Assembly (NCBI RefSeq): GCF_964204645.1 | Contig: NC_134027.1 | Span: forward strand, 15,656,485-15,720,484 | Source: Tubulanus polymorphus | Lineage: Eukaryota; Animalia; Nemertea | DNA length: 64,000 nucleotides | Reading direction: 5' to 3' | Part shown: positions 1,541-42,533 of the stretch, in pieces | Numbering within the stretch: the stretch's first letter is position 1 | How the letters are laid out: each line of letters starts with the position of its first letter | Notes under the pieces: model-generated | Seen by the model: the letters and a program-made list of their open reading frames with translations, nothing else | Database searches by the model: none | What the model was told of the DNA's origin: nothing | Made by a program: the position numbers and the translations under genes

Positions 1541-1603
1541 ATAACACAAAAAAATTACCTCGAACCACTAAAAAATAATTTTAAGTAAATTTTTCCTAAA
1601 TAA

Positions 1604-2450: not shown

Positions 2451-4845
2451 ACTAGTTTTTTCAACTTCATTAATGTACATCTCGTGATCTTCGGATCTTG
2501 AACAATTCATTTCGTTTCATTACAACTGAGTTATATAAACACTTTATATAATCTTGAAATTCTATGTGTTTATGAACCACATGTTTTGTTATTCCTTTTA
2601 ACTTTTTTGCTTCATGATCTTTTGTTCTATAACTATACATTTTACTTCTTATCCCAACAAATTCAATCATTTCATCGCCCTCTAATTCATCTTTAAATTT
2701 ACCAGGAATATTTCTATTATCATTGCTAAATAGTTCATGATCTTTTGGATAATTGCTTAAGTCAAAATGATGTTTTAATGTTTTTAAGTCTTTTGTTATG
2801 TCATTGGTCTTGATTTTTAGTATGTACGCATCCGTATCGACCGCTATTAATGGAAATCCACAGTTAAATGTGCCATCTTCAGTTGATAAATCATAAACAT
2901 AATCTGATGGGTTATATATTTCGAATAGATCTTTAACTTCTTCAGTTATTTCTTTTTCTGTATGCCTTAGATTAGAACAATTTGGCATAGATTTAATCAA
3001 TCCAATATTCATATTAAAACCTAATGAATTACCTAATGGATTCAATCCTGATATACCAACTTTTCCTTTTTGTGCAAATGTTATTACCGGAGAACTCGTA
3101 AATTTTTTAGCATCATCTGCTGCGTAGAATCCAATGAAGAACCATTTTCTTAAATTATCTTTTGCATTTAATACATAATCTGGAACTATCTTTTATTTTG
3201 TTGAAGTATTACTTTTAACTATTGCATGAATATAGAATTCATCATTATATTTTATAGCAAAATCTTTAGGATTATTCACAAGTATTCTATGAACTGCTGA
3301 TGATTTCACATGATCATCGATTCTAAATGTTTTATTTGGATTAACTTCTTCACAGTATTTTTTAATTCTTTCTAATAATTTCAAATCTTGGTTACACAAA
3401 TACCCACAATATTTAGTTCCACTAACAGATTTATACACACCTGCTGATCCATCTCCTATAAAAAATCCTTTTATAGAATATTCTTTTTCTTCTAATGTTT
3501 CGGGTTCTATATTATAAATATTATTAATTATTTCATCAAATGACATATGATTCATTCTTAGAAAAAATCTTTTATGTAATAATTCATCTCCAATTTTTAT
3601 ATCAGTTAGTTTTATTTCATCACCATTTCGTTTAATTAAACTGTGATCTTCAGAAACATCTACAAACCCTAATTTAGTTCTAACTCTATTGATTTTCTTA
3701 TTTGTTTTATGCCTATTAATATTCTTTAATTTTTTCCATCCATTTTTTGTTCAAACATTCATTAATCCATTTATTTGTATTAATTCATTTTCACCATATG
3801 AAATATAACGTTGATTTTGTTTTGGAATTATTTCTGAAATTCTTCTTATCAATATTTTATCATTACATTTTAATAATATTGGGGTGTCAGCTGTTACAGA
3901 ATCAAAATATAATATTCCAATATGCTTTTCCCCAAAAAGTGGTTGTAAAACATTATAATAAAAATCATACATTAATAATTTTGATATTTCAAAAACAGTT
4001 GAACCAATGAATATAGGTTTATTAAATTTCATTGACGTTCTTTTTAATGTTACTGCTGTTAAATAATCTTCAAATCTTTTATTTCCTAAATGTCTAGGAC
4101 TTGCTTGTAAATGTCTTAATCGTTCAGAATTATTTACTAATTCAATATCATTTCTATTTCTAACATTTTCACATGTTTTTCCATAAAAACTATTATTCAT
4201 TAATTTTAAAAAATCTTTTTCAAAATCGGTTTTTGATATGGTTCTCTGTTGAGTATTGAAATCTATATATTTTTCTAACCACTTCGATTGATTAAATTCA
4301 ATATATCTATGTACTTTTTTAAATTTCATTCCTTGTTTTAGATACAATTTTAACATTCAATAATGGGCAATATAATTACATTTATTATTTTGTGTTAATA
4401 TTAATTTTTCTGTAAAAACATGATCTTTCGGTTTTATTTTTTTCTGGTATTCACTTAAATAACTATCATCTACAGCTAAATGTTTAGGGCAATAAGGTAA
4501 ATTTCTTGTTATAAACTTTATGTTATCAGGATATTCTAAATCAACTATAAAAAAAATAACCAATTGGTGCTTCATCTTCTAAACTCATAATTGCGCTTTC
4601 CCAATTAGTTTTATCATCATTTTCAACTTCTGTTAATATAAAATTTTTATATGGTTGAGGTTGCATCATTGCCCAACCATATAAATTATTGGCGTCAATA
4701 TATAATAATTTATAATCATTATTTGCTTTAAAATACTCCCATAACACTACTAATTCCACCTCTTATTGATTTTTCAAATAATAAAACCATGTCTGGTTCT
4801 TTTAATAAATCTAATTCTACATTTGTATATTTTAAACCACATAAT
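2445..4845 (-). pseudogene. Protein-primed PolB C-terminal half with intein
   Basis: YIDANNLYG (motif A), KLMNNSFYGK (motif B), YFD/TDA (motif C split by insertion), KKLKGI. Confidence 0.92.
2836..3900 (-). mobile_element. Intein with LAGLIDADG homing endonuclease (two in-frame stops; terminal Asn changed to Asp)
   Basis: Starts SVTADTP after YFD; SEDH block B; GFFIGDGS and GFYAADD endonuclease motifs; VYDLSTEDGTF block F; ends AVD before T; 1065 bp. Confidence 0.9.
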
Positions 4846-5262
4846 TCATTTAATATTAATCTTATTTGAAAGTATGTATGGAATCTAAAGGGCGATAATA
4901 TTAATGGTAAATTTGGTTCATTTAAATGATTATTCCAACTTATACCACACCCTGTTGTTGCACAATGAACTGCAAAATTTAATTGGTTTTGCCAGAATTG
5001 CATATTTGATTTTAACATCCATAATTCTGCTTTACTTAATTCTTTTTCAAAATTAATTTCATAAACATTGAACATATTTTCCATCTTTACATTAAAATTA
5101 TTACTTTCAGTAACATAAATATCTAAATTAATTAATGAATTTAAAACTTCATTTCTATATGTAATATTTTTATTAAAATCTATTGCAGGAATATTATATT
5201 TACTTGATTTATTATATTGGAAAGCTTTTGGAAAATTTTTTTCCATTTATATAATAAAGAAA

Positions 5263-5697
5263 TCAATAATTAATTAATTCTTTTAATAATTTATCTTGTT
5301 CTTCAACTTTTATATTACCATTTAAACTCATTATATAATCTATTGTAGTTTTCAATTTTTTTATTTCTTTTATACTAGATTTTATTTTTTCCTTATTACC
5401 TTTTATATTTAATTTTGAACTTATTCCGGTTAAAACACTTGATGATAATCCTAGCACACCAATTGGTATAGCTAAAGGTGTTAATGGTGAGAATATTGCT
5501 AAAAATGTTATCACCGAACTAATTGTAACCGAACCACTTATAATAAAATAATATATAATTTTGAATTTTAAATATGTTTTCTGTTTTATCTTTAAATCAT
5601 TTTCCAATTCTAATATTTGTTTTTCTAAATATAATTTTAATTCAGTTCTATTTATATCATGAGGAATAATAACATTATTATCAACTTTATAACCCAT
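5263..5697 (-). CDS. PLV 144-aa protein with two hydrophobic helices
   Basis: Homologous to 48908-49330. Confidence 0.75.
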   Translation of the reverse strand: MGYKVDNNVIIPHDINRTELKLYLEKQILELENDLKIKQKTYLKFKIIYYFIISGSVTISSVITFLAIFSPLTPLAIPIGVLGLSSSVLTGISSKLNIKGNKEKIKSSIKEIKKLKTTIDYIMSLNGNIKVEEQDKLLKELINY

Positions 5698-5724
5698 TTA
5701 TTTAACAAAAAATAATATATAATT

Positions 5725-6145
5725 AATTAGTGAACTTATATGCTACAAATATAACAACAACTGTTCCACCTAAAATTCATATTATTTCATATTGTTGTTG
5801 TTCTTAACTTGGTGTATAATAATCTGATAATTTAGGTTTATATAGATGTAATTTTTCACGATTTGTTACTGCGTTATATAAACTCATAGCTTCATCGACT
5901 GATTGAAAATCTCTATGTGTAATTTTCTGATTATATAATTCTTTATTGATGTAATCCATATAGTTTTGCCTCTTTTCTCTATATTCTTCTGCAGGTTTAT
6001 TGTATTTCTCCAATGCTAAGTTATGTCTTCTTTGTTCTCCTAATGAACTATTTTTATCAATATGTTCAAATAAATATCCACCAACAGTAAATGCCAAAGC
6101 GTTAACAATTGCCGATCCTATAATAGTAATAATTGCAGATGCCAT
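5725..6145 (-). pseudogene. PLV 140-aa protein with N- and C-terminal hydrophobic segments (premature stop)
   Basis: Homologous to 48466-48888. Confidence 0.75.
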
Positions 6146-6760
6146 TTATTTAGTAAAAAAATTATGCATTTATATAGGAGGAATATATTTTTGTTTTTCT
6201 AAATAATCAATTGTTAAATTAGATAAAGTAACTGCTAATGTTAATTTTCAAATATCATTGATATCAAATCTATCAACATTAACACTTCCTATTTTGAATA
6301 CTTTTTTAATACCATTGTATAACCAACTGTTCCAACTGATAGTAAGGCACCATTATATAATCCATTTACTATCCACTTATTATCAGTCATTTATTTATCA
6401 AAAAAATTATTATCTTCAAAATATCTAGTTATCTTAGTTTTAATTGTTTCACCATTTATAATATTGTTAGTTTCATTTTCATATATTTCAGTTATTATTT
6501 TTTCAATTTCATCAATGATAAAATCTTCATCTAATTCATAAAATCTTAAAGACTCTCTAATTAAATCGGTAATCTTTTCTACATTAAAAGTTTCTTTATC
6601 TATTGTTTTTTAAAAATCAAATGTTTCATTAGAAAATGCAATATTTTTAATATGTGTAATTGTATCATTAATATCAAATTTCATTTCTTTCTCACGTTTA
6701 AAATCAAATCCAAAACATATACTCGGTCCTACTGTAATATTCATTTATATAATGAAAAAA

Positions 6761-7523
6761 TTACTCCCTACATCTTAAAACTAATTCATAAATTACAGGA
6801 AAGTCATTCAAATAAATTAAATAACCATTATGATTTCTTATTTCTAATTTGAAATTATTGAAATGTGGAATACAAGGTTTAAAATCACATTCAGCTAAAT
6901 TATAATTTATTTGCGTTCCAAATTGTTTAACATTTTTTAATGGTAAAATATTTAAAATACTAGAATTAGAAGTTGTATCTTTAGTTGCTTCAAGTGTTTT
7001 TGTAGCATCAATTAAATTGCAATAAATATAAAGATGAGTGTAAGGTATAAGGTTTGGCGAAGCCTTAATATTTGAACAAAGTTTATCTGGTGTAATTCCT
7101 AACAGTTTAGCTATAGTTTTTTTAACTAAAAATTGATGTTTTTCACTATAAGCTAACCTTATCTTTATTTTATCAGAACTATCACTTTTTAAAAATCTAC
7201 TGTTAAATCCAGCATCACTACCTAACTTGTGCCAGGCTTTTTTATTAATTTCTTGTACCAATGTATCTTAATTATATAACCCTGGTTTTAGATATAGATG
7301 ATACCATTTATTTTTACTTTTATTAAAAATTAAAAAGGCTCTATGTTCAAGAGTTTCATTCGATATATTATAAAAAGAATTACATAAACTTACATTTACT
7401 AATTTTAAAAATACACAATTCTTAAATTCTCTAAATTATCTAATTGTACTAGTAAATTATGTGATTTATAATTTGTAAGTCTTCTAGAATCAACAAATAT
7501 TCTATATTCTTTGAATTCACCCG
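6761..7523 (-). pseudogene. Penton-like minor capsid protein
   Basis: Homologous to 47100-47861; start codon appears mutated to ACG. Confidence 0.75.
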
Positions 7524-7591
7524 TTATTTATAAGACAAAAAATTACATCGAACCATTAAAAATTAATCTTAATAAATTTTTTCCAAAATAA

Positions 7592-8666
7592 ATGGATGAG
7601 AAGATAGGATGTGAAATTTGTGGTGAACTTCAAAGAAAAAGTAATATGGCTCGACATGATGAAAATTATAAACCCCCTAAAATAAACTGCCCAAATCGTA
7701 ATAAATTATTCTCAAGAAATTATGTAAAAAACATTCAGAGAAGTGTAAAATTAATGACTCAACGGTTAATGTTGATAGTAACGAAAGTAATAGTAATTCT
7801 GTTGAAACTGAACCTGAAATTATTTCGAAAAGACCTTTCTTATTCTATGATAAGAATAATATAAAAGATCATTTCTGTGAGCCTTGTCGAACAAAATATA
7901 GCCCTGAAAATATAGAAGATTGGGAGAATCATCAATTTCGTAAAGCACATATAGATAAAATTTCTAATAAATTTGAAACATAATTCAATGAAAGAAAAAA
8001 TAAAATATTAGAAAAAATGAAATATGAGAAAACGTTACCAGATAATAAAGAAACACTTGAAAAGTTGGAAAAACAATATAATGAATTAGCAAGAAAAACA
8101 TATTATTGTAAATGATGTAAATTGATTATTACAACAAGTGATTCAAATCTACATAGTAGAACAATAAAACATAAAGAAAACGTAAGTAAATACCAAGAAC
8201 TTAATGAAGATCTTTTACCAAGATATGACAGTAAAAATGCCCACAATGTATTTATGAGTACTTAAGACAAGAAAATTCTGTGATACTTTGTAATGAATGT
8301 GGATGGCAAAGAAATTTATGGGGTGATGAAAAAACTAGAGATATTCTTATAGAACCAAAATTAAAATATCTAGATGTCATTTTTAAGATATTTTCTATGG
8401 AAGATCATACACCAGAATATAAGCAATGGCTTGAAAAAATGAAAATGATAGAAAATAATAATGGTGAAATAACTAAGAAAGATATAATAAAAACAATTAT
8501 TCCATCAACATTTAACACAAATGAAAAGAAAATGTATTTATACTTATTATTTAACGATTATTATAAAAATCCTAAATTAACAAAAGAAGATATGGAAAAT
8601 ATAAAAGAAACATTCACAAACATATTAGAATATTATGTGGATATTAAAATAACAGATTCCTTATAA
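7592..8666 (+). pseudogene. Multi-zinc-finger/VLTF3-like gene
   Basis: Homologous to 20977-22242; frameshifted. Confidence 0.7.
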
Positions 8667-9396
8667 CTTTTTAGCTTCATGATCTTTTGTTCTATAGCTA
8701 TACATTTTACTTCTTATCCCAACAAATTCATGATTAGTAAATTTCAACTTACATTCTTTTTTTGTTGGCATTATTAATTTACAAAAAAAACTTTCCCAGA
8801 GATACTCATTTTTGGATATTCAACATCTGTAATAAAGTCCATTATTTTTTCCATTATTTCAATAAATTGACTATACTTCTATTGTTGCTCCTTTAAAAAA
8901 TCTAAATATAATAGCTGCAGGACCAATTTTACTACGTAATGTTTCTAAAATTTCAATTGTATCTTTTATTTCTAGAGTATCAATATACTTTCTAACATTT
9001 TCCATGTAAGGTTTATTTGAAATAGATTTAGTTTTTGAAACTGGTTTTTTTACTTGTTGAGGTTTATCATCAAAATAATCTGTTCCTAAAACATTATTAC
9101 TTAAATTTTGTTTGTGTTTTTGCAATTCGAGATGTCTTTTATAATTCCTTTTTGCTATTAATTCATTACAAACTTCACATTTTATTTCATCCACATTCAT
9201 ATTTTCTAATTGTTTTTCTAATTAGAATAATTTTTTGTGTAATTTATCTTGTTTTACTTGACGCCATATATTTTTGGTTGAAGAATAAGCAACCGAACTC
9301 TCAGGGTTGTAATATAAATTTCTTAGATATTGTTCTTTAGTATTAGGAGTTTTTTTACCACCCCATTTATATATTGTTAATTTTAACTTTATATTT

Positions 9397-10090
9397 CTAA
9401 TATTGAATACTATCTAATTGAGAATTTATAATATTTAATTGCGCGTCAGATATAATATAAATGTGCATTCTGAAATTGTTGACTCCTTTTTTCTTTTTCG
9501 TGAATAATTGTATTTACATCTTTAGTGTTCTGTAATTTTTTACCAGAACCATGTAATGAATTATCCTCTGTTGTTCTAATAACCATAATGCATATTTATT
9601 GCCGGTATAATAATCAATTTGATTAATATTACAATTTTCAGATGGTTTTTACTTTTTCATTCATAAAATGCTTTCTAATTTCTGGCCACTGATCTACCAC
9701 TCTCATTCTCATAATAATTATCAACATTTATTGCACCGTTAGAATATGTTGTAATGGTAAAAAATATTAATATACCTTTAATAGATCATATTGGGAAGTT
9801 AATATTCTCATTAATTATTTCATCATTTGCATTAATAGTTACAGTTTTAAATTTATCAATATAATCATATAACAATGAAAAATCCTTGATTGTATTGACT
9901 TTGAATTATGCTTGAAATATTTTCATCAGTTACTGTATCATATTCTAAACATATATTCGATGATTTATATCCCATATCTTTAACAACGCTAGATAGCACA
10001 ATTTCATTAACAGGAGCAAATGTTATCTCGAATATAATATCTTCTAGAATTGCGTATTTATACAAAGGTGCATTATTATTGATTATTTCA
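9397..10090 (-). pseudogene. Major capsid protein C-terminal half
   Basis: NNAPLYKYAI..NICLEYDTV..SDAQLNI matches 52750-53505. Confidence 0.8.
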
Positions 10091-10437
10091 AATAATTCAT
10101 TAATTCTTTGTTTAAATACTCTTTTATTTTGATTTATTTCTGTGTCGGTAACATTTTCTATTTCATTACTATTACTTATTCTTTTAATTCTAGATGGTTC
10201 TAAATTACTCAAAGTTGATTCTGCTAATATTTTGTTTTGATTTTTATAAGAGATATTAATATAATAATCATCTTTCAAATGATAATAATATTCACCACTA
10301 TTCATATCTGGCACCTCTATCATTTATATTATATCCAGATTTTTCAAATATAGGTTTAAAATTATTTATATTCAAGTTCAAGTTCAAGTTCAAGTTTATT
10401 TTCCATATATATATATATATGATTAACAAATTACAAA

Positions 10438-10617
<180 letters not shown>

Positions 10618-10884
10618 GGCAGGATACATGGAAGCCATTATAGGCTGTAAACCCGAGAGTCCCATGCACGCTGACAACAATACAATGCAAGTACAAGTGT
10701 TATGGTTGAGATGAAATGGAATGGGGCGGATGAAGAGAGAAATAGCCTGCCTAAAATTTGATTCCACAAATAGAACATTTTTATCAATGTTTAAAGCGAC
10801 AATGAATTGGAGAATTATTATTTAAGAGTACGATTATTTAATTTCGATTGATTTCAATAAGAGGAAATTGTGATTTTCTTAAAT

Positions 10885-13863
10885 CTATTTATCAGTGTTT
10901 TGATGCTTGCTTCTCAAGGTGTCTGTGCTGTTTTGCCATATCATTGGTATATTTTTCATAAAGGATCTATTATATAAACTTGTGTTATGTAAGCCTATTC
11001 TGGGATGGTTTCTTTGGCGGGTGTTATAATTATGAGTAAATGAATTTCTATTAAATATATCTAGGACCGGTGCCGGTAGTTTGGATTTGCAGAAGTTATA
11101 TGCAGTTTTTAACATTTCAAGATTGATTAGATCATATAGCTTTAATATATTTAATGATTTGAATGCGGGGGACGATGGTGAGCAAATATCTGAATTTTTG
11201 ATCAAACGTACTGCTCTTTTTTGAAGGATGAATATTTTGTCCAGAGTAGATTTGGTAATTAGAGGAAAGTTTAGGCAATATGTTAGATGGCTTTGGATAT
11301 AACTGAAGTATAGGATTCTTTTGGTCCGGGTTGGAACAAAATTTTTAAGTGTTTTAATCATGTATAGATTTTTATTGATTTTGTTAATTACGGTATGGAC
11401 ATGTTCTTCAAAGGACAAATTTTCACTTATATTAAGACCAAGCAGATTGAAATTTTTTTCATTTTTTACGGACTGATTGCCAAATTTCAGATTAATTTCA
11501 TTATGATTAACTTTAAATGAATAAGGCTTAAATAACATATATGCTGTTTTAGTAAGGTTAAGGGTAAGCTTATTGGCTTTAAACCAATTCCATAACAACA
11601 TTTAGGTCATTTTTCATATTAGAAACTAGAACTTTAAGATTTTTATTAATAACAAATAGTGTAGTGTCGTCCGCAAAGAGAACAGCTTTACAATTTTTTA
11701 AATTCAGTGTCAAGTCGTTGGTATAAATGATAAAAAGCAGAGGCCCTAATATTGAGCCCTGTGGTATTCTCAACTCTGAATTATGATTTTTATATTGCAC
11801 AAACATATTTCGATCTGTACGATAGCTTTTAAACCAATCTAAAGCTATTCCACGAACGCCATAATAATTTAATTTTTTGATAAGAATATCAATATCGAGT
11901 GAGTCGAAAGCTTTAGAAAGATCTAAATATACACTTAACATAAAGTTCTTTGTATCGATACTATTAATAGCATGACTCAAAAATTCAGTCAAAGCATGAC
12001 TGGTTGAGTGATTGGCTCTAAATCCGTATTGGCTTTTATAGAGTAAGTTATTTTTATTGACAAAGTCGTAGAGTCTTTAATGTATGATCTTTTCCAGTAA
12101 TTTAGATAAAACTGGTAGGAGGGATATCGGTCTATAATTATTGATGTCCTTTTTGTCTTTAGCTTTAAAAATAGGTACAACTTTAGCGGTTTTCATATTT
12201 GTAGGGAAGTGACCTTCACTCATCGACTTGTTGAATACAACTGTTAAAGGCATAGAAATCTCATGGGCAATTGATTTTATTAGTATGTTATTCAAATTAC
12301 CATGACCACAGCTAGTTTTGTAAGGTAGACTATTTATGAAAGTTTGAACTTCTTTTTGGTCTGTAGGAAAAGACATATTGAGTTATTGTTAGATCGCTTT
12401 AAGTATACATCATAATTATTGGTAGGGCTCTGTATTTTTGAGGCAAATGACTTTCCAACTGTCCTGAAAAAATCATTGAAAGAGTTACATATTTCTACAG
12501 GATCACTTATTACTTTTCCTTTAATTATGAAATTACTAGAAGTTACACATGTTTTATCATTTTGCTTACCTATGACTGTTTTCCAAAAACTCCACAGCTT
12601 TCTTGCATTATTTTCAAACGATGAAATTTTGTCAGCGTAGTAGATTTTCTTGGCCCTACGCTTTATATGATTTAAGTTGTTCCGATAATTTAAGTAGTTT
12701 ACATATCGTGGGTGAGTTTTCTCAAGTCCTATTACTTTTTTATACATTTTATCTTTAGTGCGCGAAGCTATACAAAGGCCTTTAGTCATTCAAGGTTCGT
12801 TAATGTTCAGTTTTCTAGTGGTTTTAAGTTTGCAAGGAGATACTTCATCTACAGAATGTTTTATATTTTGGACAACAAAATCATAACCGGCTTCACAGTT
12901 TAATTCTTGCAGAGTGTGCCAATTTATATTAGACAATTTTTGTTTTATTTTAATGACATTTGCATCAGATAAATCTGTATAATAAAACTGTTCATTGACT
13001 ACTTTGGTTGTATGCTTTTGTGTATCAATTGTAGTGAGGCACGCAAAATGATCAGATACATGATTAGTAAGAATGTAGCTTTCATAATTATTGAACTCTG
13101 AACTAATATATATGTTATCTATTAAAGTTGCTGTTTTAGAAGTTACTCTAGTTGGTCTTATGATAGTTGGTAATAAGTTATGACTAAGATTTGAATTTAA
13201 AAATTCCGCAGTGTTTTTATGCTGATTGATTTTAATTAGGTCAAGATTCTGGTCCATGCCTAATATAGCGAGTTTATTTTCTCGACTTATAGCTTCAAGC
13301 AAGTTGTTGTAGTCGGACAGGAATTCCATTTCACTTGTTCCTGGGATTCTATAGATCTCACCTAGTATTATATTTTTAGAGTTTATTCTTTTTATTTCGA
13401 GGATACACGATTCAAACTGTCTTTCTTTAAAAATTGATAGATCACCTCGAATTTTAAAATCGATTTCATCATTTATATAGATTGCAACTCCTCCTCGAAT
13501 TAGATTGGTGCGGTGCCTTTCTACAAAATTATATCCCGGTATATTATAGAGATCAAAATTTAAATCGTTTAGAAATGTCTCGCATAACATTATTACATCT
13601 ATTTCATAATTGCATTGTCGGCAGCTTTTTATTACATTTTCTAGTTCATCTAGTTTAGACGGTAAATTATGAAAATTCAAATGAAGTACATTAAGACTAC
13701 CTATACAGTCAAGTTGCCCAAGCTCTGATGATTCAACGTAAGGACACAATTTTTCAAACATTTGAAAATCATCAATTAACCTTGAAAAATCAAATTCTTT
13801 ATCATTATAAATTTTCTCCAATCTTGTCGACATATCCATGTTACCTAGACACATATTTATCAA
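10885..13863 (-). pseudogene. LINE ORF2 (AP endonuclease + reverse transcriptase)
   Basis: LCETFL, GGVAIY, PTRVT..LIDNI, SDHF; YRPISLLP, DLSKAFD, PQGSILGPLLF, FADDT; stop and frameshifts. Confidence 0.93.
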
Positions 13864-14265
13864 AAAGGTCTAAGCAGGCTAGTACTCCAATGAAAAGATG
13901 AGGAAATGATAACATGATGGATGGATAAACATTTAATGACATTTCTAAGTTTATGTTGGGGTACTCAACAACCTGAATATTTTAAAACTTGAGTTGGATA
14001 TCATATTGTTATGGAATGCAGGAGTTCTAGTAGGGGTTAATTTTCTGGGAATTCACGGCGATAAAATGTATAGAAAATTGTTCACAGATAAGATATTGCA
14101 TTATACGAAAACATTTCAAGATTAAGCCCGTTTGATTTTGGCAGGATCGTCCACAATTCTTTTTATCATGGAACTATGTACAAACATAATGAGTGTAGTG
14201 TAGAAGCCATTTACAACATATGCAATATATGTAATGCATGGATTTCGGGTTGACTGAGAATCCAT

Positions 14266-14621
<356 letters not shown>

Positions 14622-15050
14622 GCATACACATAAATGTATACGAAGCTATTCATAAAAAATATATATACGAGTACATTCTGAATTGAGCCAGTACTTTATG
14701 TTAATCAATTGGATGAGAACTCCAAGGTGGAAAGACCATATTTGATATATACGTGGTGAGAATAATTCACAGTAAAGTAAAAGCTTCTTTCAAGCCAACT
14801 GAAGGTCTTGTAGTATGTTTACTGCAGTTTCCGAAGAAGAAATATTTCGTATAATATATATGTGAACTAGGGGGAAACGTGTAATTTCCATGTCTATACA
14901 TATGAGCATATATGATCATGGGATTTTCAAGCCAAGTGGAGATCATAAAGTATGTTTGCTACAAGTTACAAAGCAATAATGCACAACTGATATAGTATAC
15001 TATAATACAGTGAGGAAATGTCAACTTAGCGGAACATGTAGTTACCATAT

Positions 15051-15935
15051 CTATCTAAATAGTACAATAGCCCAACAAAGCACTGGATTTTTCAACCCAA
15101 ATTCAGGATCAAAAATTTTCAGTTTGTGCTTTTCTTCCGTGACGTTATCGATACCATAGACAAAACCATTTTGAGTCCAAACTTTCGTAAATTCATCACT
15201 GTCCGATGCTCTCATTTTACATTTGTACACTTCGGGGCACAAGTCCTCACGAAGAAATAATTCTTTACCCTTCAAATGTTTTCTGTTAGCATAGATATCG
15301 TTTCTAAGTTCCCGATCATTGAATCTGACGATTATCCCATCTGGGGTATTATCGCTGGACTGTTTGTTTTTCCTGGGTACTCGATGAGCAATCTCAATAT
15401 CGATCTTTTTAACCTTTCGCACATATGTACTGAGATTGTTGTTTATTTCATCAATAACTAGTCTTTTACAGTTTTAATTCGGCAGTTCCTGGATGTTGAA
15501 AAAGCGCAAATTATTCCTTCTAGAATACTGATTATTTTCAACAATTTTTGTTTTCATTTCTGACATTTCTTGCTGTACTTTCTTTTTTATTGGCTAGTTC
15601 GCCATCACTACACCTCTTTTCCATTGATTTCAGATCCTCTCTTAGTTTACGATTCTCTGTTTCAATGTCGCTTATCCTCTGATCATATTTAATCATAAGT
15701 TCGTCTTTGAGCTCTTTAATCACGTTTGCTGTAGAAGTTTTAAGTCCTTCGATGCTCGCCAGTATATCTGCCAATGAAATATTTTCTGGATCATCTTCTA
15801 ATGTTGAAGTTCTCCCTCGTTTTGCTGCTGGTTTAGACTTAGATGACTTGGTTGGCTTTACAGCATTCTCAGCTGAGCAATCATCAGAATTTTGGGCAGC
15901 ATCCAGTGCAGTAAAGTCTTTTATGGATGTTTGAC
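15051..15935 (-). pseudogene. LINE ORF1 (coiled coil + RRM/CTD)
   Basis: Coiled coil, QYSRRNNLRF, IEIAHRV..IIVRF..FLREDL. Confidence 0.8.
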
Positions 15936-16542
15936 TCTTGTTCTAGAGTTATTGTTGCGCTGTTGTGACTATTTGATAGTTTATTTTAAGATAATTGATT
16001 ACTCACTTGACTGATGTCAATAAAATCAATTCAAATTCACAGAAATTCACAGTTCCACTCCTCTAGATAATGAAGTCCATTCTACACCACTTTAGTCACC
16101 ATGTGTATTGATATATTCCATTTATTGGTAGTCCAATGCATTAGATTTACATTCTACATTACTTTAGAATCCATAACAGTATCCTGGGTGTAGATTTTGG
16201 TGGTTGAAGTTGCCTGTGATTTTAAGACCAAACAACACAGGCGGCCATTTTCGTATCAAATCATTTTCATCATATTCTAAATTCTGTCTTACTAAATCTG
16301 GATTTTAATTTTCAATATTTATTCTCCGTCCAGCTCTTCTATCAAAATCGCCTGTTGATATTATATTATCATTAAAACCACTATCTGCTAAATTATTATT
16401 ATATTCCTGCTCATTACCGTCATTAAAACTTGTTTCATTGAAATCAGGCGGTTGTTCTTCAGTTATGCAGGGTTCATCAAAAGTATCCATTCCAATATCT
16501 TCTCCACCTTCTACATCCATATATATTATAAAAAAATTAAAA

Positions 16543-17955
16543 TTAAAAATAAAATATTCCTCCTATTACAATTCCTATGCAAGTAATAGCTAATTCAGTA
16601 TTTTCCTGTGATTTATTATCATTATTACTTTTAATTATATCATGTTGAATATTATCAGAGTTTATGTTTTCTGTAGTATTGTAATCTTTTATTTTAGAAT
16701 CACTATCCAATTTAATATTTTTAGTTTTAGTTTCTGTTGATTGAATATGTTTTTTAATTTTTTCACCTTCCATTAGTTTTGGAGCAGTAATAATCCTTTC
16801 ATTTATATCATTTAATCCAAACTTATCATTTTTTGTTGCAGTTTTAATTAGATTATCATAACAAATTATATTTCCCATCTTTAATATTAAATCATCAGAA
16901 ACAATTAATAAATTAGGTCCTATACAATAATTGAATCTTACATGAGATTTATCTAAATAATTTTGGTACCTGACTATATTTTCTGGAATCGATCTATTTT
17001 TATCATTATGAATGGAATCTTCAAATAAAACTTTAAATTGTTTTTGTGTATCAAATGATGTATTTAAATTTCCAATTATTGGGGATCTTGTTTCAACTTG
17101 AGCGCCTATGATACATATCAAATAAGTTCTAATTGAGTATCAAATAAGTATACCAGCTTTAGTAAATCCTTCACTATTTTCTAAAATAAAATAAACCCAA
17201 CCATTATTATTTTCTTGTTTTAAATTATCATAAGATTTCGGTAATTTATTGAAATTTATTGTTTCTAAATCCAAAGTTTCTATTTTACCATAACCTTATT
17301 TATTATTATAGATATTATAAAAACTATTAGATGGTATGGCAACTGCACAATATTCTACAATTTTTTTAGGGCAAGGAAGTGATCTTATTGTTCCAATTTT
17401 TGTTCTAAAAATCAGAATTATTTATATCTATATTAAATTCATTACAAACTTGATAAAACTTTGATAAATTAATATTATTATCTAATTCTTTGAAATATCT
17501 AGATCCTGGCAAAGGAGTCTCTAATTCATTTAATATTAATCTTATTTGAACACTAATTCATTTAATATTAATCTTATTTGAACATAAGTATGGAATCTAA
17601 ATGAACTTTGAATTAATTTATATTTAGAATTATTCAAATGATCATTCCAACTAATTCCACATCCTGTTGTAGCACAATAAACTGCAAAATTTAATTGGTT
17701 TTGCCAATACTTCATATTAGATTTTAATAACCATTGTTTTTCAACTTTCAATTTTTTTAAATTAATTAGACATACATGAAAAATATTTTCCATCTTTGCA
17801 TTAAAATTATTAGTTTCAGTAACATAAATATCTAAATTAATTAATGAATTTAAAACTTCATTCTTATAAGAAATATCTTTATTAAAATCTATTGCTGGAA
17901 TATTATATTTAATTTATTTATTATATTGAAAAGCTTTTGGAAAGCTATCTACCAT
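16543..17955 (-). pseudogene. PLV ~450-aa protein with C-terminal hydrophobic anchor
   Basis: Homologous to 49346-50703 (WQNQLNFAV, GCGISW, QVETRSPI). Confidence 0.8.
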
Positions 17956-18060
17956 TTATATAATAAAAAAATTAATAATTTATTAATTCTTTTAATAATT
18001 TATCTTGTTCTTCAACTGTTATATCACCATTTAAACTTATTATATAATCTAATGTATTAT

Positions 18061-18761
18061 TAGGCCATTAATGTATTATTATTGACCTTTTTTGTTCCCA
18101 AAAATGTCAATTTTGGCCTGAATTCTGAGTCCTCTAGCTTTCTAATGGTGTGCCATGTTTCATTGCAATTTGTAATGGGTATTCTTTGGAAAGGGATCTT
18201 TTATATCCGAGAGGGTATTTTTGACCAGGCAATTATGACGCAATTGGCGGCCATCTTGGGGTCATCAGTACTCATTCGTAGGTGGAAAAAAAGTTTTTCC
18301 ACATCATATTGATACTTAAGCATATTTTGCTACCATAATCAATTGGAAAGATGTAGCTCATGACATGTTCTATGATCGAGGTGAGTTTCAAGCTCATTAG
18401 TTTTTGTTTATGGCCACCAGGGGGCGTTGGACAATACAATAACTTAGTATATCTATATTACATTTGTACCTATGCATATTTTGCTACCACAATCAATTGG
18501 AAAGTTGTAGCTCATGACATGGTCCATGATCTTGGTGAGTTTCAAGCTCATTGGTTTTTGTATATGGCCACCAGGGGCGTTGAACAATACAATAACTTAG
18601 TATTTCTATTTTACATTCGTTCCTGCTGTCTGTGTTAACACACGATTTTACTATGTAAATGATATTGAGCAGGGAGTGTTTGATAAATATAACCCACAGA
18701 TTACATCATTTATAAAAAGCAAATCTGACAGGCTGGCCATTGTGCCCCTTGGGGCTCTTGT
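18061..18761 (+). mobile_element. Non-autonomous Helentron-like (HINE) element
   Basis: Inserted in a T-run of a PLV gene without TSD; internal ~155-bp tandem repeats; 3' hairpin gccccttggggc followed by tcttgt. Confidence 0.6.
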
Positions 18762-19572
18762 TTAATTTATTAATTTCTTTTATATTAGATTTCATTTCTT
18801 CTTTATAACTTTTTACATTTAATTTTGAACTTATGCCGGTTAATACACTTGAACTTAAACCTAAAGCTCCAATTGAGATAGCTAAAGGTGTTAATGGTGA
18901 GAATAATGCTAGAAATGTTATTACAGAACTAATTGTAGCTGAACTACTAATAATAAAATAATATATAATCTTACTTTTAAAATATTTTTTCGTTTTAATT
19001 TTAAACCATTTTCAAATTCTAATATTTGTTTTTCCAAATATGATTTTAATTAAGTTGTATTTATATCATAAGGAATAATATCAATATTATCAATTTTATC
19101 ATCCATTTATTTAGAAAAGAAATTACTAATTAGTGAATTTATAAGCAACAAATAATACAATAACTGTTCCACCTAAAATCCAAATTATTTCATATTTCTG
19201 TTGTTCACTACTTGGGGTATAATAATCTGATAATTTAGGTTTGTATAGATGTAATTTTTCGTTTTTTGTTACTGCGTTATATAAACTCATAGCTTCATCA
19301 ACTGATTGAAAATCTCTATGTGTAATTTTCTGATTATATAATTCTTTGTAAATATAATCCATATAATTTTGTCTCTTTTCTCAATATTCTTCTGCTGCTT
19401 TATTATATTTCTCTAATGCTAAGTTATGTCTTCTTTGTTCTGCTAATGAACTATTTTAATCAATATGCTTAAATAAATAACCACCACCTGTAAATGCTAA
19501 AGCGTTAACAATTGCTGATCCTATAATAGTTATAATTGCAGATGCCATTTATTAAGTAAACAAATTATGTAT

Positions 19573-19794
19573 TTATAAAGGAGGAATATATTTTTGTTTT
19601 TCTAAATAATCAATTGTTAAATTAGATAAAGTAACTGCTAATGTTAATTTTAAAATATCATTGATATCAAATTTATCAACATTAATACTTCCCATTCCAA
19701 ATACTTTTTTTAATACCATTGTATAACCAACAGTTCCCACTGATAATAATTCTCCTTTATATAAACCAGTTATTATCCACTTCTGATCCGCCAT
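19573..19794 (-). CDS. PLV 73-aa small hydrophobic protein
   Basis: Homologous to 48220-48441. Confidence 0.78.
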   Translation of the reverse strand: MADQKWIITGLYKGELLSVGTVGYTMVLKKVFGMGSINVDKFDINDILKLTLAVTLSNLTIDYLEKQKYIPPL

Positions 19795-20141
19795 TTATTT
19801 AGAAAAAAATTACTATCTTCAAAATATTTAGTTAACTTAGTTATAATTATTTCAACATTTATAATATCATTAGTTTCATTTTCATGTATTTCAGTTATTA
19901 TTTCTTTAATATCATTAATAATAAAATCTTCATCTAATTCATAAAATCTTAAAGACTCTCTAATTAAATCAGTAATCATTTCTACATTAAAAGTTTCTTT
20001 ATTTATTGTTGTTTCATATTCAAATGTTGTTTCATTAGTAAATGCAATATTTTTCAGATGAGTTATTACATCAAATTTCATTTCTTTCTCACGTTTAAAA
20101 TCAAATCCAAAACATATACTCGGTCCAACAGTTATATTCAT
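19773..20141 (-). CDS. PLV 122-aa protein of unknown function
   Basis: Homologous to 47878-48219. Confidence 0.75.
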   Translation of the reverse strand: MNITVGPSICFGFDFKREKEMKFDVITHLKNIAFTNETTFEYETTINKETFNVEMITDLIRESLRFYELDEDFIINDIKEIITEIHENETNDIINVEIIITKLTKYFEDSNFFLNKWRIRSG

Positions 20142-20157
20142 TTATATAATGAAAAAA

Positions 20158-20908
20158 TTACTCTCTAAATCTTATAACTAATTCATATATTACAGGAAAA
20201 CTATTCAAATCAATTAAGTATCCATTATGATTCCTAATTTCTAACTTAAAATTGTTAAATTGTGAAATACAGGGCTTAAAATCACATTCAGCTAAATTAT
20301 AATTTAATTTTGTTCCAAATTGCTTGACATTTTTTAATGGTAAAATATTCAATAAACTAGAATTACATGTTATATCTTTAGTTGCTTCGAATGTTTTTGA
20401 AGCATCAATTAAATTGCAATAAATATAAAAGTGTGTGTAAGGTATTAAGTTTGGTGTAGCATCAACATTTGAATAAATTTTATCTGGTGTAATTCCTAAT
20501 AGTTTAGCTATAGGTTTTTTAACTAAAAATTGATATTTTTCATCATTAGTTAACCTTATCTTTATTTTATTAGAACTATCACTTTTTGAAAATCTAATAT
20601 CAAATCTGGAATCACTACCTAATTTGTGCAAGGCTTTTCTATTAATTTCTTGAGATAATGTATCTAAATTATATAACCCTGGTTTTAGAAATAGAGGATA
20701 CCATTTATTTTTGTTAATAACTGCAAAACTTCGATGATCAATAGTTATCTGATATATAATAAGAAGAATTACATAAACTAATATTTAATAATTTTAAATC
20801 TACACAATTCTTAAATTATCTATCTGATTGTACTAGTAAATTATGTGATTTATAATTTGTAAGTCTTCTAGAATCAACAAATATTCTATATTCTTTTAAT
20901 TCACCCAT
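20158..20908 (-). pseudogene. Penton-like minor capsid protein (frameshifted)
   Basis: Homologous to 47100-47861. Confidence 0.78.
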
Positions 20909-20976
20909 TATTTATAACACAAAAAATTACCTCGAACCATTAAAAATTAATCTTAATAAAATTTTTTCCTAAATAA

Positions 20977-22242
20977 ATGGATGAGAAGATAGGATGTGAA
21001 ATCTGTGGTGAACTTCAAAGAAAAAGTAATATGGCTCGACATATGAAAAAACATGATGAAAATTATAAACCCCCTAAAATAAACCGTCCGAATTGTAATA
21101 AATTTTTCTCAAGAAATTATGTTAAAAAACATTCAGAGAAGTGTAAAATTAATGACTCAACGGTTAATGTTGATATTAATGAAAGTAATAGTAATTCTGT
21201 TGAAGTTGAATCTGAAATTATTTCGAAAAGACCTTTCTTATTCTATGATAAGAAAAATATAAAAGATCATTTCTGTGAGCATTGTCGAATAAAATATAGC
21301 CCCGAAAATATAGAAGATTTGGAAAATCATCAATTTCGTAAAGCACATATAGATAAAATTTCTAGTAAATTTGAAACATAATTTAATGAAAGAAAAAATA
21401 AAATATTAGAAAAAATAAAATATGAGAAAACGTTACCAGATAATGCAGAAACACTTGAAAAGTTAGAAAAACAATATAATGAATTAGTAAGAAAAAAATA
21501 TTATTGCAAATATTGTAAATTGATTATTACAACAAGTAATTCAAAACTACATAATAGAACAATAAAACATAAAGAAAACGTAAGAAAATACCAAGAACTT
21601 AATGAAGATCTATAGCCAAGATATGATGCCCACAATAATGCCCACAATGTATTTATGTCTACTTAAGACAAGAAGATTCTGTGATATTTTGTAATGAATG
21701 TGGATGGCAAAAAATGTATGGGGTGATGAAAAAACTAGAGATATTCTTATAGAACCAAAATTAAAAAATGAAAATGAAAAAATGAAAAAATGAAAATGAT
21801 AGAAAATAAAAATGGTGAAATAACTAAGAAAGATATAATAAAAACAATTATTCTATCAACATGTAACACAAAAGAGAAGAAAATTTATTTATATTTATTA
21901 TTTAACGATTATTATAAAAAACCTAAATTAACAAAAGAAGATATGGAAAATATAAAAGAAACATTCAGAAACACATTAAAATATTATGTGGATAATAAAA
22001 TAACAGATTCAATTAATTATGAATTCTGTTTAAATAAGATTGTAAATTTTTTAAACATCGATATTATAATTCCATTTGATGAATTAACAAACAAAAAGAA
22101 ACAAAGAGAGCTAGATGAAATGTGGAATAATATAGAACTTTATTTAAATGAGAAAAATGAAATAGAAGAACCTAAACAATTAAATAAAAATGAAGAAACC
22201 AGTAGTGATTTCGAGTATGATGATATTGATTATATGTTTTAA
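20977..22242 (+). pseudogene. Multi-zinc-finger protein with C-terminal VLTF3-like domain
   Basis: Several C2H2-like fingers, CxxC..CNECG ribbon, then PKL..D..I..F..Y..SINYEFCLNKI..L..K..D.MW..I..L. Confidence 0.6.
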
Positions 22243-25020
22243 TGGCCATAAGGTAATGTTTTTATTCCATCACCCAAAATATATCTTTTATCATCAAATG
22301 GATTTAAACTAGTTTTTTCAACTTCAATAATGTACATCTCGTGATCTTCTGATCTTAAACAATTCATTGTGTGTTTCATTACAATTGCGTTATATAAACA
22401 CTTTATATAATCTTGAAATTCTATATGTTTATCAACCACATGCTTTGTTATTCCTTTTAACTTTTTAGCTTCATGATCTTTTGTTCTATAACTATACATT
22501 TTACTTCTTATCCCAACAAATTCAACCATTTCATCACCTCCTAATTCATCTTTAAACTTACCAGGCTGCTTTTTATTATCATTGCAAAATAGTTCATGAT
22601 CTTTTGGATAATTGCTAAAGTCAAAATGATGTTTTAATGTTTTTAAGTCTTTTGTTATGTCATTTGTCTTAATTTTTAGTATGTAACTGTCAGTATTGGC
22701 CGCTATTAATGGAAATCCACAGTTAAATGTTCCATCTTCAGTTGATAAATCATAAACATAATCTGTTGGGTTATATATTTCAAATAAATCTTTAACTTCT
22801 TCAGTTAACTCATTTTCTACATGGCTTAAATTAAAGCAATTTGGTTTAGATTTAATCAATGCAATATTCATATTAAAACCTAATGAACTACATAACACAT
22901 TTAACCCACTTATTGCACATTTTCCTTTCTGAGCTAAAGATATTGTTTTGCGGTTTTTGAAACTTTTTGTTCCCTCTGCTGCGTAGAATCCAATGAAGAA
23001 CCATTTTCTTAAATTATATTTTGCATTTAATACATAATCTGGAACTATCTTTTCTTTTGTTGAAGTATTACTTTTGACTAATGTATGAATATAGAATTCA
23101 TCATTATATTTTATAGCAAAATCTTTAGGATTATTTACATGTATTCTATAACATTGTGATGATTTCATAACATCTATGATTTTAAATGTTTTATGTAAAT
23201 AAACTTCTTCACAATATTTCTTTATTCTTTCTAATAATTTCAAATCTTGATTGCATAAATACCAACAATATTCATTACCCCAAACATATTTATAGACACC
23301 TGCTGAACCATCTCCCATGAAAAATCCTTTGATAAAATATTCTTTTTCTTCTAATGTTTTGGGTTCTATATTATAAATATTATCAATTATTTCATCAAAT
23401 GACATATGATTCATTCTTTGGAAAAATCTTTTATGTAATAATTCATCTCCAATTTTTATATCAGTTGGTTTTATTTCATCACCATTTCGTTTAATTAAAC
23501 TATGATCTTCAGTAAAATCTACAAACCCTAATTTAGTTCTAACTCTATAGATTTTCTTATTTGTTTAATGCCTTATAATATTCTTTAATTTTTTCCATCC
23601 ATTTCTTGTCCAAACATCCATTAATCCATTTATTTGTATTAATTCTTTTTCACCATATGAAATATAAAGTTCATTTTGTTTTGGAATTATTTCTGAAATT
23701 CCTCTAATTAATATTTGGTTATTGTATTTTAATAATATTGGGGTATCAGCTGTTACAGAATCAAAATATAATATTTCAATATGCTTTTCCCCAGAAAGTG
23801 GTTGTAAAACATTTTGATAAAAATCATACATTAATAATTTTGATATTTCTAAAACAGTTGAACTAATGAATATAGGTTTATTAAATTTCATTGACGTTCT
23901 TTTTAATTTTACCGCGGTTAAATAATCTTCAAATCTTTTATTTCCTAAATGTCTAGGACTTGATTGTAAATGTCTCAATCGTTCAGAATTATTTACTAAT
24001 TCAATATCATTTCTATTTCTAATATTTTCACGTGTTTTTCCATAAAACTATTATTCATTAATTTGAAGAAATCTGTTTCAAAATCTGTTTTAGATATGGT
24101 TCTCTGTTGAGTATTAAAATCTATATATTTTTCTAACCACTTCGATTGATTAAATTCAATATATCTATGTACTTTCTTTAATTTCATTCCTTGTTTTAGA
24201 TAAAATTTTAACATTCTATAATGGACAATATAATCGTATTTATTATTTTGAGTAAGTATTAATTTTTCTGTAAAAACATGATCTTTCGGTTTTATTGTGT
24301 CTTTTAAATTCATTAAATATTTTTTCTAATTTCTCTTTTATTTGTGTTTTTGAAATTATTTCTTTAGAGTGTGTTTGAATATTATAATCCATTTTTTCTT
24401 CTGATTTTACAAAACTTACTTTCCCAGAGATACTAATTTTTGGATATTCAACATCTGTAACAAAGTCCATAATTTTTTCCATGATTTCAATAAATTTACT
24501 ATAATCTTCTATTGTTGTACCTTTAAAAAATCTAAATATAATAGCTGCAGGACCAGTTTTAGTACGTAATATTTCTTAAATTTCAATTGTATCTTTTATT
24601 TCTAATGAATCGATATAATTTCTAACATTTTCCATATAAGGTTTATTTGAAATAGATTTAGTTTTTGAAACTGGTTTTTTTACTTGTTGAGGTTTATCAT
24701 CAAAACAATCTGTTCCTAAAACATTATTACTTAAATTTTGTTTGTGTTTTTGCGATTCGAGATGTCTTTTATAGTCCCTTTTTGCTATAAATTCATTACA
24801 AACTTCACATTTTACTTCATCCACATTCATATTTTCTAATTGTTCTTTTCTTTCATTGGAATTTTCTGGAATTTCAAAATCTATAACATTTTTCATATGA
24901 TATGCAGTTTTTTTAATGTCGTGCTTTATGAGATTTATCAATGTATTTTTTACAATATGTACAATAATATTGATTTTCATTAACATCAATTTTTTCTGTG
25001 TGGTACTCACTGTCTCCCAT
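22239..25020 (-). pseudogene. Protein-primed PolB with intein and a large internal deletion
   Basis: N-terminal zinc fingers at 24243-25020 joined to KLMNNSF..YFD|intein|TDS..DDKRY. Confidence 0.92.
22695..23759 (-). mobile_element. Intein with LAGLIDADG homing endonuclease, 355 codons, one premature stop
   Basis: S1 (SVTADTP), TEDH, GFFMGDGS, GFYAAEGT, VYDLSTEDGTF, terminal N followed by +1 T of TDS. Confidence 0.93.
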
Positions 25021-26297
25021 TTATTAGGAAAAAAAAGTACTTTTAGTCTCGAAAGTCTCGAGTAGCCCCATTGAAAAAATTAACGATTCCACTATGAGTG
25101 TTCGAACTCATGCGATGCTTAAGAGAGAGCTCAACTTGGAAGCCACGAATGTGTTTTTTGGACCGATGGCGGTTTTGCACTACATAAGGAACGATTCAAC
25201 CCAGTTCAAAACGTATGTCGCTAATCGTGTGTCGGTCATTCGCGCGATCTCATATCCGCACGATTGGAGGTTCGTCAGTACAAATTTCAATCCGGCGGAT
25301 ATAGCCTCCAGGGGCATGGATCCCTCGTGTGATGGTGAAACGTGGTTTTATGGCCTGGATTTCTTGAAACATGAGGAAAAAGAATGGCCACGAGAGCCTC
25401 ATCTCATGATACACCCATACAGTGTGAAGATGATCCTGAGTTGAAAAAAGCGGTGTTGTCTTCCTGCGTGGGGGAGGGTTGCAGTTCGACCAGCAAGGTA
25501 GTCGATAAGTTGTTAAACCATTGTTCGGATTGGAGTAAAACCAAACGTCTCACTGGTCGGTTGCTTAAAGTTCGAGATTACTTACGGTTCAAGGCTATGG
25601 AGCGTAAAGGAATAGAAACTGGATTATCAACAACTCTTAAGTATGCTGGAAGTACTGCTAAGTGGAAAACCGAGATAGGTAGTGTTTTGTGGAAGTCTCT
25701 GAAGAATAGGGACTTCATTACGCTTGACAAGTCAACGTTGAATGAAGCAGAATGCATCATTATCAGTTCTAAATTCTTCCACGATGAGTTGGTATTGGTG
25801 AAGGCCGGTAAACCAGTTAAAAAGTCCAGGTCAAATTGATCCGTTCATCGACTCGGGAAGCGGTCTCTTGAGAGTTGGCGGTAGACTCGCTCGTGTCTCG
25901 TTCAATATGAAGCATCCCGTTATCATACCTAAGAAGTCTTGTATCGCTGAAAAGATTATCAGGCATGTTCACGTGAATTTGGTTGGACATCTTGGAAAGA
26001 ATTCAATACTTTCTAAACCGAATGAAGATTATTGGGTTATCAGCGCAAATCGGATAGTGAAGAAGATGCTCATTTCATGTGTTAATTTTCGCAAATATAG
26101 TGGTCTGTTGAATAGCCAAAAGATGGCGAACCCCTGCAGATCGCGTTTCTACTGATCCCCCTTTTTCACATACAGGGGTTGAATATTTTGGGCCCTATGA
26201 AGTCAGGCGTGGCAGATCAAGAGTTAAACGTTATGGTGTAATCTTTACATGTCTTTCTAGTAGAGCTATCCATCTAGAGGTCGCGTCGTCGCTTGAT

Positions 26298-27068
26298 ATG
26301 GATTCATGCATCAATGCCATTCGTCGGTTTAGGGCTAGGCGTGGCAAAGTCAAAACAATACGATCAGATAATGGAACCAATCTCGTTGCGGCCGAGAAAG
26401 AACTTCGTAATGAGTTAGATAAGTGGAATCGCAGCATCATGATTGAAAGATTGGCTCAAGAAGGAATTGATTGGCGTTTCAACCCTCCCTCCTCGTCTCA
26501 TTTTGGTGGTTCTTGGGAAAGGCTCATTAGGTCTGTGCGAAAAGTGATGTATCCTTTACTAAAGGAGCAAGTGTTCCACTTAGATGACGAAGGTTTGTGC
26601 ACGTTATTGTGCGAAGTGGAGAACATTTTGAATTCACGACCACTGACTAGAACTTCAAATGATCCATGTGATTTACGTCCTCTTTCACCTAATGACGTTT
26701 TGTTGTTCCATTCTGCTGATTCTTTGCCACCAGTGCTCACCTCTGAAAATTATAACTACGCTAGAAAACGATGGAAGCAGGTCCAATATCTTTCTGACAT
26801 ATTTTGGAAGCAGTGGACCAATGAATATTTGCCTAGCTTGCAACGTCGTGCAAAATGGTGTAAACAGCGTACTAATGTAGCCGTCGGAGACATAGTTATG
26901 TTAATTGAAAGCAACATTCGAGGGTATTGGTTAGTTGGCAGAGTGGTAAAAAAGTTTCCTGATGCGCATGGGCATGTTCAATTCTGCGATGTGAAAACTA
27001 AAAGTTATGTGTTGAGAAGACCGATACACAAGTTATCTTCCATTTTGGAGATGGATATTGATACATGA
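26298..27068 (+). pseudogene. BEL/Pao integrase core and C-terminal domain
   Basis: SDNGTNL..FGGSWERLI..LNSRPL..RRPIHKL. Confidence 0.88.
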
Positions 27069-42397: not shown

Positions 42398-42533
42398 GCG
42401 ACCAATTGATTTATTTACAATACACAAATTCATATAATCAAATATATTCAAATGATAATAATTATTCTATTATTCAACTGAAATACACACGGTTATGAAA
42501 ATATATTATAGTTTTTAATTACTTTTAATATAT
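42398..42533 (+). repeat. Left terminal inverted repeat (136 bp)
   Basis: Reverse complement of 55111-55246. Confidence 0.95.

Follow-up and report, generated by a model that had tools for sequence, protein, structure and literature searches.

A decayed homing-endonuclease-type intein and its empty allele in protein-primed polymerases of polinton-like elements, probably in an animal chromosome

The question raised by this locus is what kind of insert splits the catalytic motif of a protein-primed PolB (pPolB) in the window, the whole 64,000-nt stretch analysed here, and how it came to be there. A sequence-only reading had proposed a full-size homing-endonuclease intein that passed from a giant virus into an animal endogenous virus. 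The insert, intein A, measures 1065 nt or 355 codons and lies in frame between EILYFD and TDSYIL, at YFD/TDS (the slash marks the junction) of the catalytic motif; we take this site to be the one labelled pol-c. Both boundaries are fixed because an uninterrupted LYFD/TDSY allele is present in the same window, and this allele, together with the reading frame, confirmed the in-frame split that had been described. Intein A and its surroundings are composed as follows:

22695..23759, minus strand: intein A, 355 codons from Ser1 to Asn355, with one stop at codon 65
23430..23759, minus strand: N-terminal Hint region, residues about 1-110, with Ser1 and block B T83xxH86 (TIGR01445 on residues 2-88, and model strands)
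22821..23399, minus strand: two-repeat LAGLIDADG homing endonuclease domain, residues about 121-313 (PF14528, model, Foldseek and motifs)
22695..22802, minus strand: C-terminal Hint region, with block F YD337, an FNCGFPL motif and Ala354-Asn355
23565..23567, minus strand: stop codon private to this copy (codon 65)
23760..24990, minus strand: N-extein remnants of the pPolB, whose frame breaks near 24047 and which lack about 750 residues at about 24303-24316 (tblastn map)
22239..22694, minus strand: C-extein of the pPolB, beginning with TDS (+1 Thr)

Class 1 inteins are defined by Ser1 or Cys1, a block B TxxH, a block F Asp, a terminal Asn and a +1 Ser, Thr or Cys (PMC4031507, excerpt). Intein A presents all of these residues (S1, T83-E-D-H86, D337, N355 and +1 Thr), and its two LAGLIDADG helices (136-150, GFFMGD150G, and 248-262, GFYAAE262G) end in the acidic residues D150 and E262. 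Every motif named in the sequence-only reading, from Ser1 and TEDH to block F, the terminal Asn, the +1 Thr and the two LAGLIDADG-like helices, was thus located. The penultimate residue is indeed Ala (Ala354) and not His, a state found in one of the 171 inteins examined, where His (83) and Lys (70) prevail. Penultimate His in class 1 inteins is an assisting residue and not an obligatory one. A further His near block F, found in some relatives, is absent from intein A.

We then searched the insert with Hint and LAGLIDADG profiles, as had been proposed. TIGR01445 (intein_Nterm) and PF14528 (LAGLIDADG_3) passed their cut-offs (27.1 against 24.5 bits and 30.9 against 22.5 bits, respectively); PF14890 (Intein_splicing) gave E 7e-6 and 26.3 bits, under its cut-off of 35.8, and exceeded it for the relative P0003. 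The AlphaFold2 model of intein A (pLDDT 90.6, pTM 0.91) found its best Foldseek matches in the PDB among TliVMA, PhoVMA, PI-PkoII, PI-PfuI and PI-SceI (E 5e-17 to 1e-8), and the endonuclease part also matched I-DmoI (rmsd 3.7). In BFVD, the best named matches were PolBs of phycodnavirus, Pandoravirus, Marseillevirus and Megavirus. A PDB sequence search with the relative P0002 returned PI-PkoII as sole match (E 4e-4). In the predicted structure the Hint fold of the insert is complete. Profiles, model, Foldseek matches and homologues at the same site all uphold the proposal of a full-size homing-endonuclease intein in a pPolB.

One could still regard the insert as a non-splicing nuclease domain tolerated by the polymerase, like the HNH/VSR inserts of Polinton pPolBs that are on record (10.1101/2023.08.22.554363, partial text), and the missing penultimate His of copy A would suit that reading. 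It is hard to reconcile, however, with an insert that breaks the catalytic DTD motif, with the complete Hint fold of the model and with the ends of the 84 extracted inteins, all of which start with Ser and 83 of which end with Asn; we consider it extremely improbable.

Copy A itself is a dead fossil of the pPolB intein family that cannot work, because of its stop, its frame break and the missing polymerase residues (about 245-994 of the 1356-residue allele, by tblastn map). The earlier count of a single stop thus holds for the intein alone but not for the polymerase. At the stop codon, 219 of the 229 reads placed from the sequencing run X6 differed from the window copy. Third-position GC content was 14% in both intein and extein, so composition gives no hint of a recent jump.

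Besides the copy described in the sequence-only reading, the window contains a second filled one, along with an intein-free polymerase:

2836..3900, minus strand: intein B, with two stops and a terminal Asp in place of Asn, within a pPolB remnant at 2406-4841
42629..46699, plus strand: intein-free pPolB ORF, 1356 codons, with the empty site LYFD/TDSY at 46168/46169

Inteins A and B share 88% of nucleotides and 81% of amino acids, and the flanks of the empty allele are 77-79% identical to those of filled copy A. The dN/dS ratio between the two inteins was 0.42 over the whole and 0.38 in the endonuclease part (Fisher p 3e-5 and 9e-5). These ratios indicate purifying selection during the divergence of the two inteins, and the lineage would therefore have been functional before its decay.

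In run X6 (genomic, one species, 1.9 Gb read), depth was about 200 over the intein and about 400 over the exteins. Seventeen reads joined both flanks with exactly the intein absent, and 103 left the empty site to enter the start of the intein, so that both states are multi-copy DNA. Just 72 of 6076 reads were 99% alike to the window; the run may therefore come from another individual or a related species. The first nine bases past intein A (22686-22694) equal those at the empty site of the giant-virus PolB L015 and differ from the empty allele of the window in the Ser codon family, a stretch too short to prove co-conversion. Among other candidates, an intron was ruled out by the unchanged frame and the Hint fold, a Hedgehog-type Hint domain by the terminal Asn, the endonuclease and the empty alleles, and an assembly artefact by the two window copies, the reads and independent relatives.

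The elements that host these polymerases, and their neighbours, are laid out as follows:

42398..55246, plus strand: best-kept copy of the host element, with perfect 136-bp terminal inverted repeats (42398-42533 and 55111-55246)
52259-53404: capsid-like ORF of this copy
54515-55132, minus strand: A32 ATPase of this copy (Pox_A32, E 7e-12)
205..24990, minus strand: members of this element family in tandem, with deletions and LINE interruptions, carrying inteins A and B (self-blastn, tblastn map, Pfam on LINE ORFs)
25028..27068, plus strand: BEL/Pao-type retroelement remnant (rve and DUF5641, the latter presumably a BEL/Pao mark)

As a candidate double jelly-roll capsid, the capsid-like ORF scored 0.97-0.98 against viral capsid-like clusters in the Atlas, with a recognition value of 1862, under the bar of the tool, and no Pfam match. 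The intein-free polymerase ORF of the window was not matched by PF03175, which was over its cut-off in the relatives P0002 and P0003 (P0002 shares 64% identity with this window ORF across the matched stretch); the window polymerase also gave a weak Endonuclease_7 match. Pfam profiles detected neither integrase nor protease among the 12 ORFs of the best copy. As no integrase was found there, we file the element as polinton-like and not as a canonical Polinton. A zinc-finger ORF (20977-21381) and a second ORF (21778-22242, plus strand) occur in filled-family copies and have no tblastn match in the empty-allele element.

The right terminal repeat of the best-kept element is followed by a second left end (81% similar), forming a large palindrome (42375-42591 and 55248-55456; 55100-55406), and the element sits inside a LINE ORF2. 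No target-site duplication was seen by eye at its ends. The palindrome, the location and the lack of a target duplication together suggest concatemer integration without an integrase. Nearby, 28498-33728 is a SCAN-bearing Gypsy element with its integrase before the reverse transcriptase, which we would call Gmr1-like; its 249-bp LTRs are 99.6% identical, hence a recent insertion. An inverted pair of 2.9 kb (35540-38349 and 61022-63837, 89%) with internal short repeats probably belongs to another transposon family.

We infer an animal host from the BEL/Pao and SCAN-Gypsy remnants that neighbour the element copies, BEL/Pao retroelements having a metazoan range (PMC3118150, excerpt), and the window is likely an animal chromosome. 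Were the elements instead protist or symbiont sequence outside the animal germ line, or a chimeric assembly, the scarcity of near-identical X6 reads and the mostly metagenomic records of the relatives would be readily accounted for. This is nonetheless very unlikely, given the interleaving of element copies with BEL/Pao, SCAN-bearing Gypsy and LINE remnants, the depth of about 200-400 in a genomic run of one species, the source name of the relative P0007, which points to a lucinid clam host sample, and the multi-copy state of relatives on contigs of up to 1 Mb.

To what family does the insert belong? Among 83 long homologues, the top 8 were pPolBs, 74 were RNA-primed PolB types and one was a topoisomerase II; the inteins of these 8 pPolBs are free of stops and occupy the same site (41-62% identity), and 10 shorter matches were mostly further pPolB fragments. 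Homologues at the D/TDS site have an SVT-x-DTP start, and nearly all pPolB inteins listed keep both LAGLIDADG motifs. Filled and empty alleles occur together in two clusters (136 and 121 members), whose contigs reach 1 Mb. A search of representatives gave 1111 relatives; the 148 newly listed ones comprised 129 RNA-primed PolB-like proteins, 2 topoisomerases and 17 unclassified, with no pPolB. The prokaryote genome collection held no relative among 275 pattern matches. Viral contigs gave 4 loci, with no pPolB found among those inspected, and metagenome contigs 9 loci, among them the pPolB L005 and three with giant-virus-type flanks (L007, L009 and L010). An Atlas search with part of P0002 stayed below scores of 0.9 and is a lead only.

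Several members of the wider set depart from the usual arrangement. In a cluster of 55 members on contigs of up to 825 kb (P0123, P0129, P0293-P0306), several ORFs with common ends extend from about 11 residues ahead of the intein to 4-8 residues past it; this is possibly a free-standing intein-endonuclease ORF amplified without a polymerase, or else a decayed family. Related inteins in type II topoisomerases (P0055, P0182 and P0236) lie at D/TDG or D/CDG junctions, non-allelic sites that resemble the polymerase motif. P0011, a giant-virus-type PolB, has the intein and, within its exonuclease region, also an in-frame dihydrofolate reductase domain; L015, 69% identical to it, has neither. In the RNA-primed PolBs P0140, P0160, P0189, P0191 and P0197, the best query match lies upstream of the motif C intein, which suggests that each of these proteins contains a further related intein.

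We examined the mobility of the intein on a polymerase tree of 11 filled and 54 empty exteins; of 119 empty polymerases, the first 16 were kept and about two thirds of those after them were left out, as was P0374. The distribution of the intein requires 9 changes of state, against a shuffled mean of 10.4, a count that merges gain with loss and is based on exteins picked by likeness to the window polymerase. Judged from this tree, presence of the intein is patchy. In P0005, the intein is 43-49% identical to other pPolB inteins, the extein only 18-23% to theirs, and the latter gave no significant BLASTP match to the window polymerase. By these identities P0005 is a case of horizontal intein jump between unrelated pPolB classes, since the intein is far more alike than the extein. 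Within the main pPolB class, identities of intein and extein track each other (62/58, 66/71 and 75/81), the pattern expected of vertical descent.

In homing, an empty allele is cleaved and its flanks are co-converted (PMC3943268, partial text). Across 750 positions of the P0003 cluster, 7 filled alleles are told apart from 5 empty ones by 10 residues, every one of which falls between -7 and +44 of the insertion site. Filled-empty divergence was 24.7% in this tract versus 2.9% nearby, and the empty alleles were the more variable there (10.2% versus 3.3%); p-values for this tract overstate, because it was delimited after seeing the data. No flank differences separated the filled P0102 from the empty P0105, the P0006 cluster had no flank tract, and window copy A showed no clear one against the empty allele. 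The P0003 pattern fits co-conversion or selection for cleavage-resistant empty sites, and either would need an active endonuclease.

A real intein acquired once, long ago, and then inherited with its polymerase under repeated loss would need no present homing in animals. The covarying identities of the main class, state-change counts blind to gain versus loss and the P0006 cluster without a flank tract all agree with such a history. It is at odds, however, with the P0005 jump and with the confinement of the P0003 differences to the flanks; an endonuclease out of use is expected to decay, whereas here the LAGLIDADG motifs are kept and the endonuclease part bears the mark of purifying selection. 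We therefore regard purely vertical descent as distinctly unlikely.

As to origin, pPolB inteins formed one clade in four intein trees (support 99 in three and 100/99 in another, unrooted one). Four proteins without a C-terminal junction were dropped beforehand, and new representatives lacking a full intein, 5 more with doubtful boundaries, short and very long inteins, copy B and near-duplicates were left out. With phage-like PolB inteins as outgroup, in three free trees, including a mixture model with 7 outgroup rows, the pPolB inteins were nested among those of RNA-primed PolBs. With 3 outgroup rows, the mixture model placed the root beside the pPolB inteins, with the RNA-primed PolB inteins as a clade (99/99), and a constrained nested tree was better by 1.3 lnL only (AU p 0.56).

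The sister of the pPolB inteins varies between trees: P0011/P0166 received 95/92 in the unrooted tree, a group with a G-x-P-L tail was not rejected (AU p 0.33) and the candidate sisters were not separated. A constraint that kept the pPolB inteins together but left P0005 outside could not be rejected either (p 0.26). The C-terminal G-x-P-L motif occurs in 13 pPolB and 10 RNA-primed PolB rows among 171. Close relatives of the tree neighbours P0011 and P0058, and of some G-x-P-L RNA-primed PolB rows, sit on giant-virus MAG contigs. These phylogenetic and genomic neighbours make a giant virus the likely donor.

Instead of a giant virus, the donor may have been the Pol delta of a protist, a mirusvirus or the PolB of a jumbo phage; alternatively, the pPolB inteins could be basal and have seeded some of the giant-virus ones, with intein and homing otherwise as described. 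Four observations lean that way: the root position in the tree with 3 outgroup rows, the related intein group in phage-like PolBs, the cysteine-rich C-terminus of the near neighbour P0010, presumably Pol delta-like, and the existence of protist Pol delta inteins (PMC10710043, excerpt). Against them stand the nesting in three free trees, the predominance of RNA-primed PolB-like proteins and lack of pPolBs among the newly listed representatives, and the G-x-P-L motif common to both groups, some of whose RNA-primed bearers have relatives on giant-virus MAG contigs. A donor other than a giant virus thus seems rather unlikely, though less so than the other alternatives weighed here.

The kinship with giant-virus PolB inteins that the sequence-only reading had put forward is backed by BFVD matches, the homologue set and the intein trees. 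For its more specific attribution to a Mimivirus type no particular link emerged, and the sister group changes between trees. The intein tree proposed as a check nests the pPolB inteins among RNA-primed PolB inteins in its three free versions, while intein and extein identities largely co-vary in the main pPolB class; the suggested transfer from a giant-virus to a polinton-like polymerase agrees with the nesting but is not particular to this element.

Taken together, we hold it highly probable that the locus derives from a splicing, homing-endonuclease intein in motif C of an endogenised polinton-like pPolB, in a likely animal genome, by way of an old giant-virus-type entry. This explanation has its sequence-level basis in the boundaries, the motifs, the predicted fold, the filled/empty allele pairs, the pPolB intein clade and the class jump. 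The precursor of intact copies is predicted to splice the intein out by the class 1 route (Ser1, Asn355 and +1 Thr). Since splicing would restore motif C, a filled polymerase would work only with a working intein. Intein-free copies would be cut by the endonuclease and likely acquire the intein when repaired on a filled template; the many integrated or replicating copies per nucleus would serve as targets for homing. After a single old entry from a giant-virus-type RNA-primed PolB, at the same D/TDS site and conceivably during co-infection, the intein would have spread by homing from one element copy to another within the host nucleus and been lost repeatedly. A stronger version has about an even chance of being right: that a giant-virus intein, having entered polinton-like polymerases and passed between unrelated pPolB classes, has become resident, mobile and self-driving in multi-copy element families of several animal hosts, with converted flanks, possibly resistant empty alleles and maybe a free-standing ORF (P0123).

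How does this system compare with those already known? Searches of the open literature gave no earlier account of inteins in the polymerases of Polintons, Mavericks, adintoviruses or PLVs. The word intein occurs 0 times in the main texts of PMC8502044, 10.1101/2023.08.22.554363, PMC11131425 and PMC8097293. Reviews describe metazoan genomes as devoid of inteins (PMC8529194), and a survey lists giant-virus families and unclassified viruses as the sole viral holders of polymerase inteins (PMC5784728). An available part of PMC11071308 suggests intein invasions for pPolB nuclease inserts, in one speculative sentence and with no Hint domain shown.

The host element shares pPolB, A32 ATPase, capsid-like ORF and terminal inverted repeats with Polintons/Mavericks, adintoviruses and integrase-less MELD viruses, but integrase and protease were not found in its best copy, and inteins go unmentioned in the consulted portions of surveys of these elements. 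HNH/VSR inserts likewise place a homing-type nuclease inside a pPolB; no Hint domain is reported for them in the partial texts at hand, whereas the window intein has a complete Hint in motif C, with filled and empty alleles coexisting. The RNR intein of Chilo iridescent virus is an intein of an animal-infecting virus (PMC549080, excerpt), but according to that excerpt it lies in another gene, has a Gln-type C-terminus and belongs to a free large virus instead of germ-line copies.

The archaeal inteins PI-PkoII, PI-PfuI, TliVMA and PhoVMA and the yeast PI-SceI combine Hint with a two-repeat LAGLIDADG domain as here (TM up to 0.64), but are 10-17% identical to the window intein, more compact and found in other host proteins or hosts. 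PolB inteins of Nucleocytoviricota (Mimivirus R322, phycodnavirus, Pandoravirus and Marseillevirus) are of the same size class and have Ser1/Asn/+1 Thr and LAGLIDADG as well; the D/TDS site recurs in homologues, and the closest named folds belong to this group. The R322 intein has 351 aa, Ser1/Asn/+1 Thr and a LAGLIDADG domain (PMC549080, excerpt), a likeness drawn from its published description. These inteins reside in RNA-primed PolBs, whereas the window intein lies in a protein-primed one with many integrated copies in a cellular genome, at 30-43% identity.

The insert is a real intein of a known kind in a new class of host enzyme; it probably resides in animal chromosomes, and the signs that it homes are indirect. 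The pPolB is a polymerase class where published inteins were not found, and its intein family would document, directly in sequence, that genes pass between giant viruses and polinton-like viruses, supporting the earlier guess of intein invasions in pPolBs. Complete inteins would thereby be placed in likely animal chromosomes through endogenous viruses, and the filled and empty alleles side by side would offer a natural homing system in animal cells.
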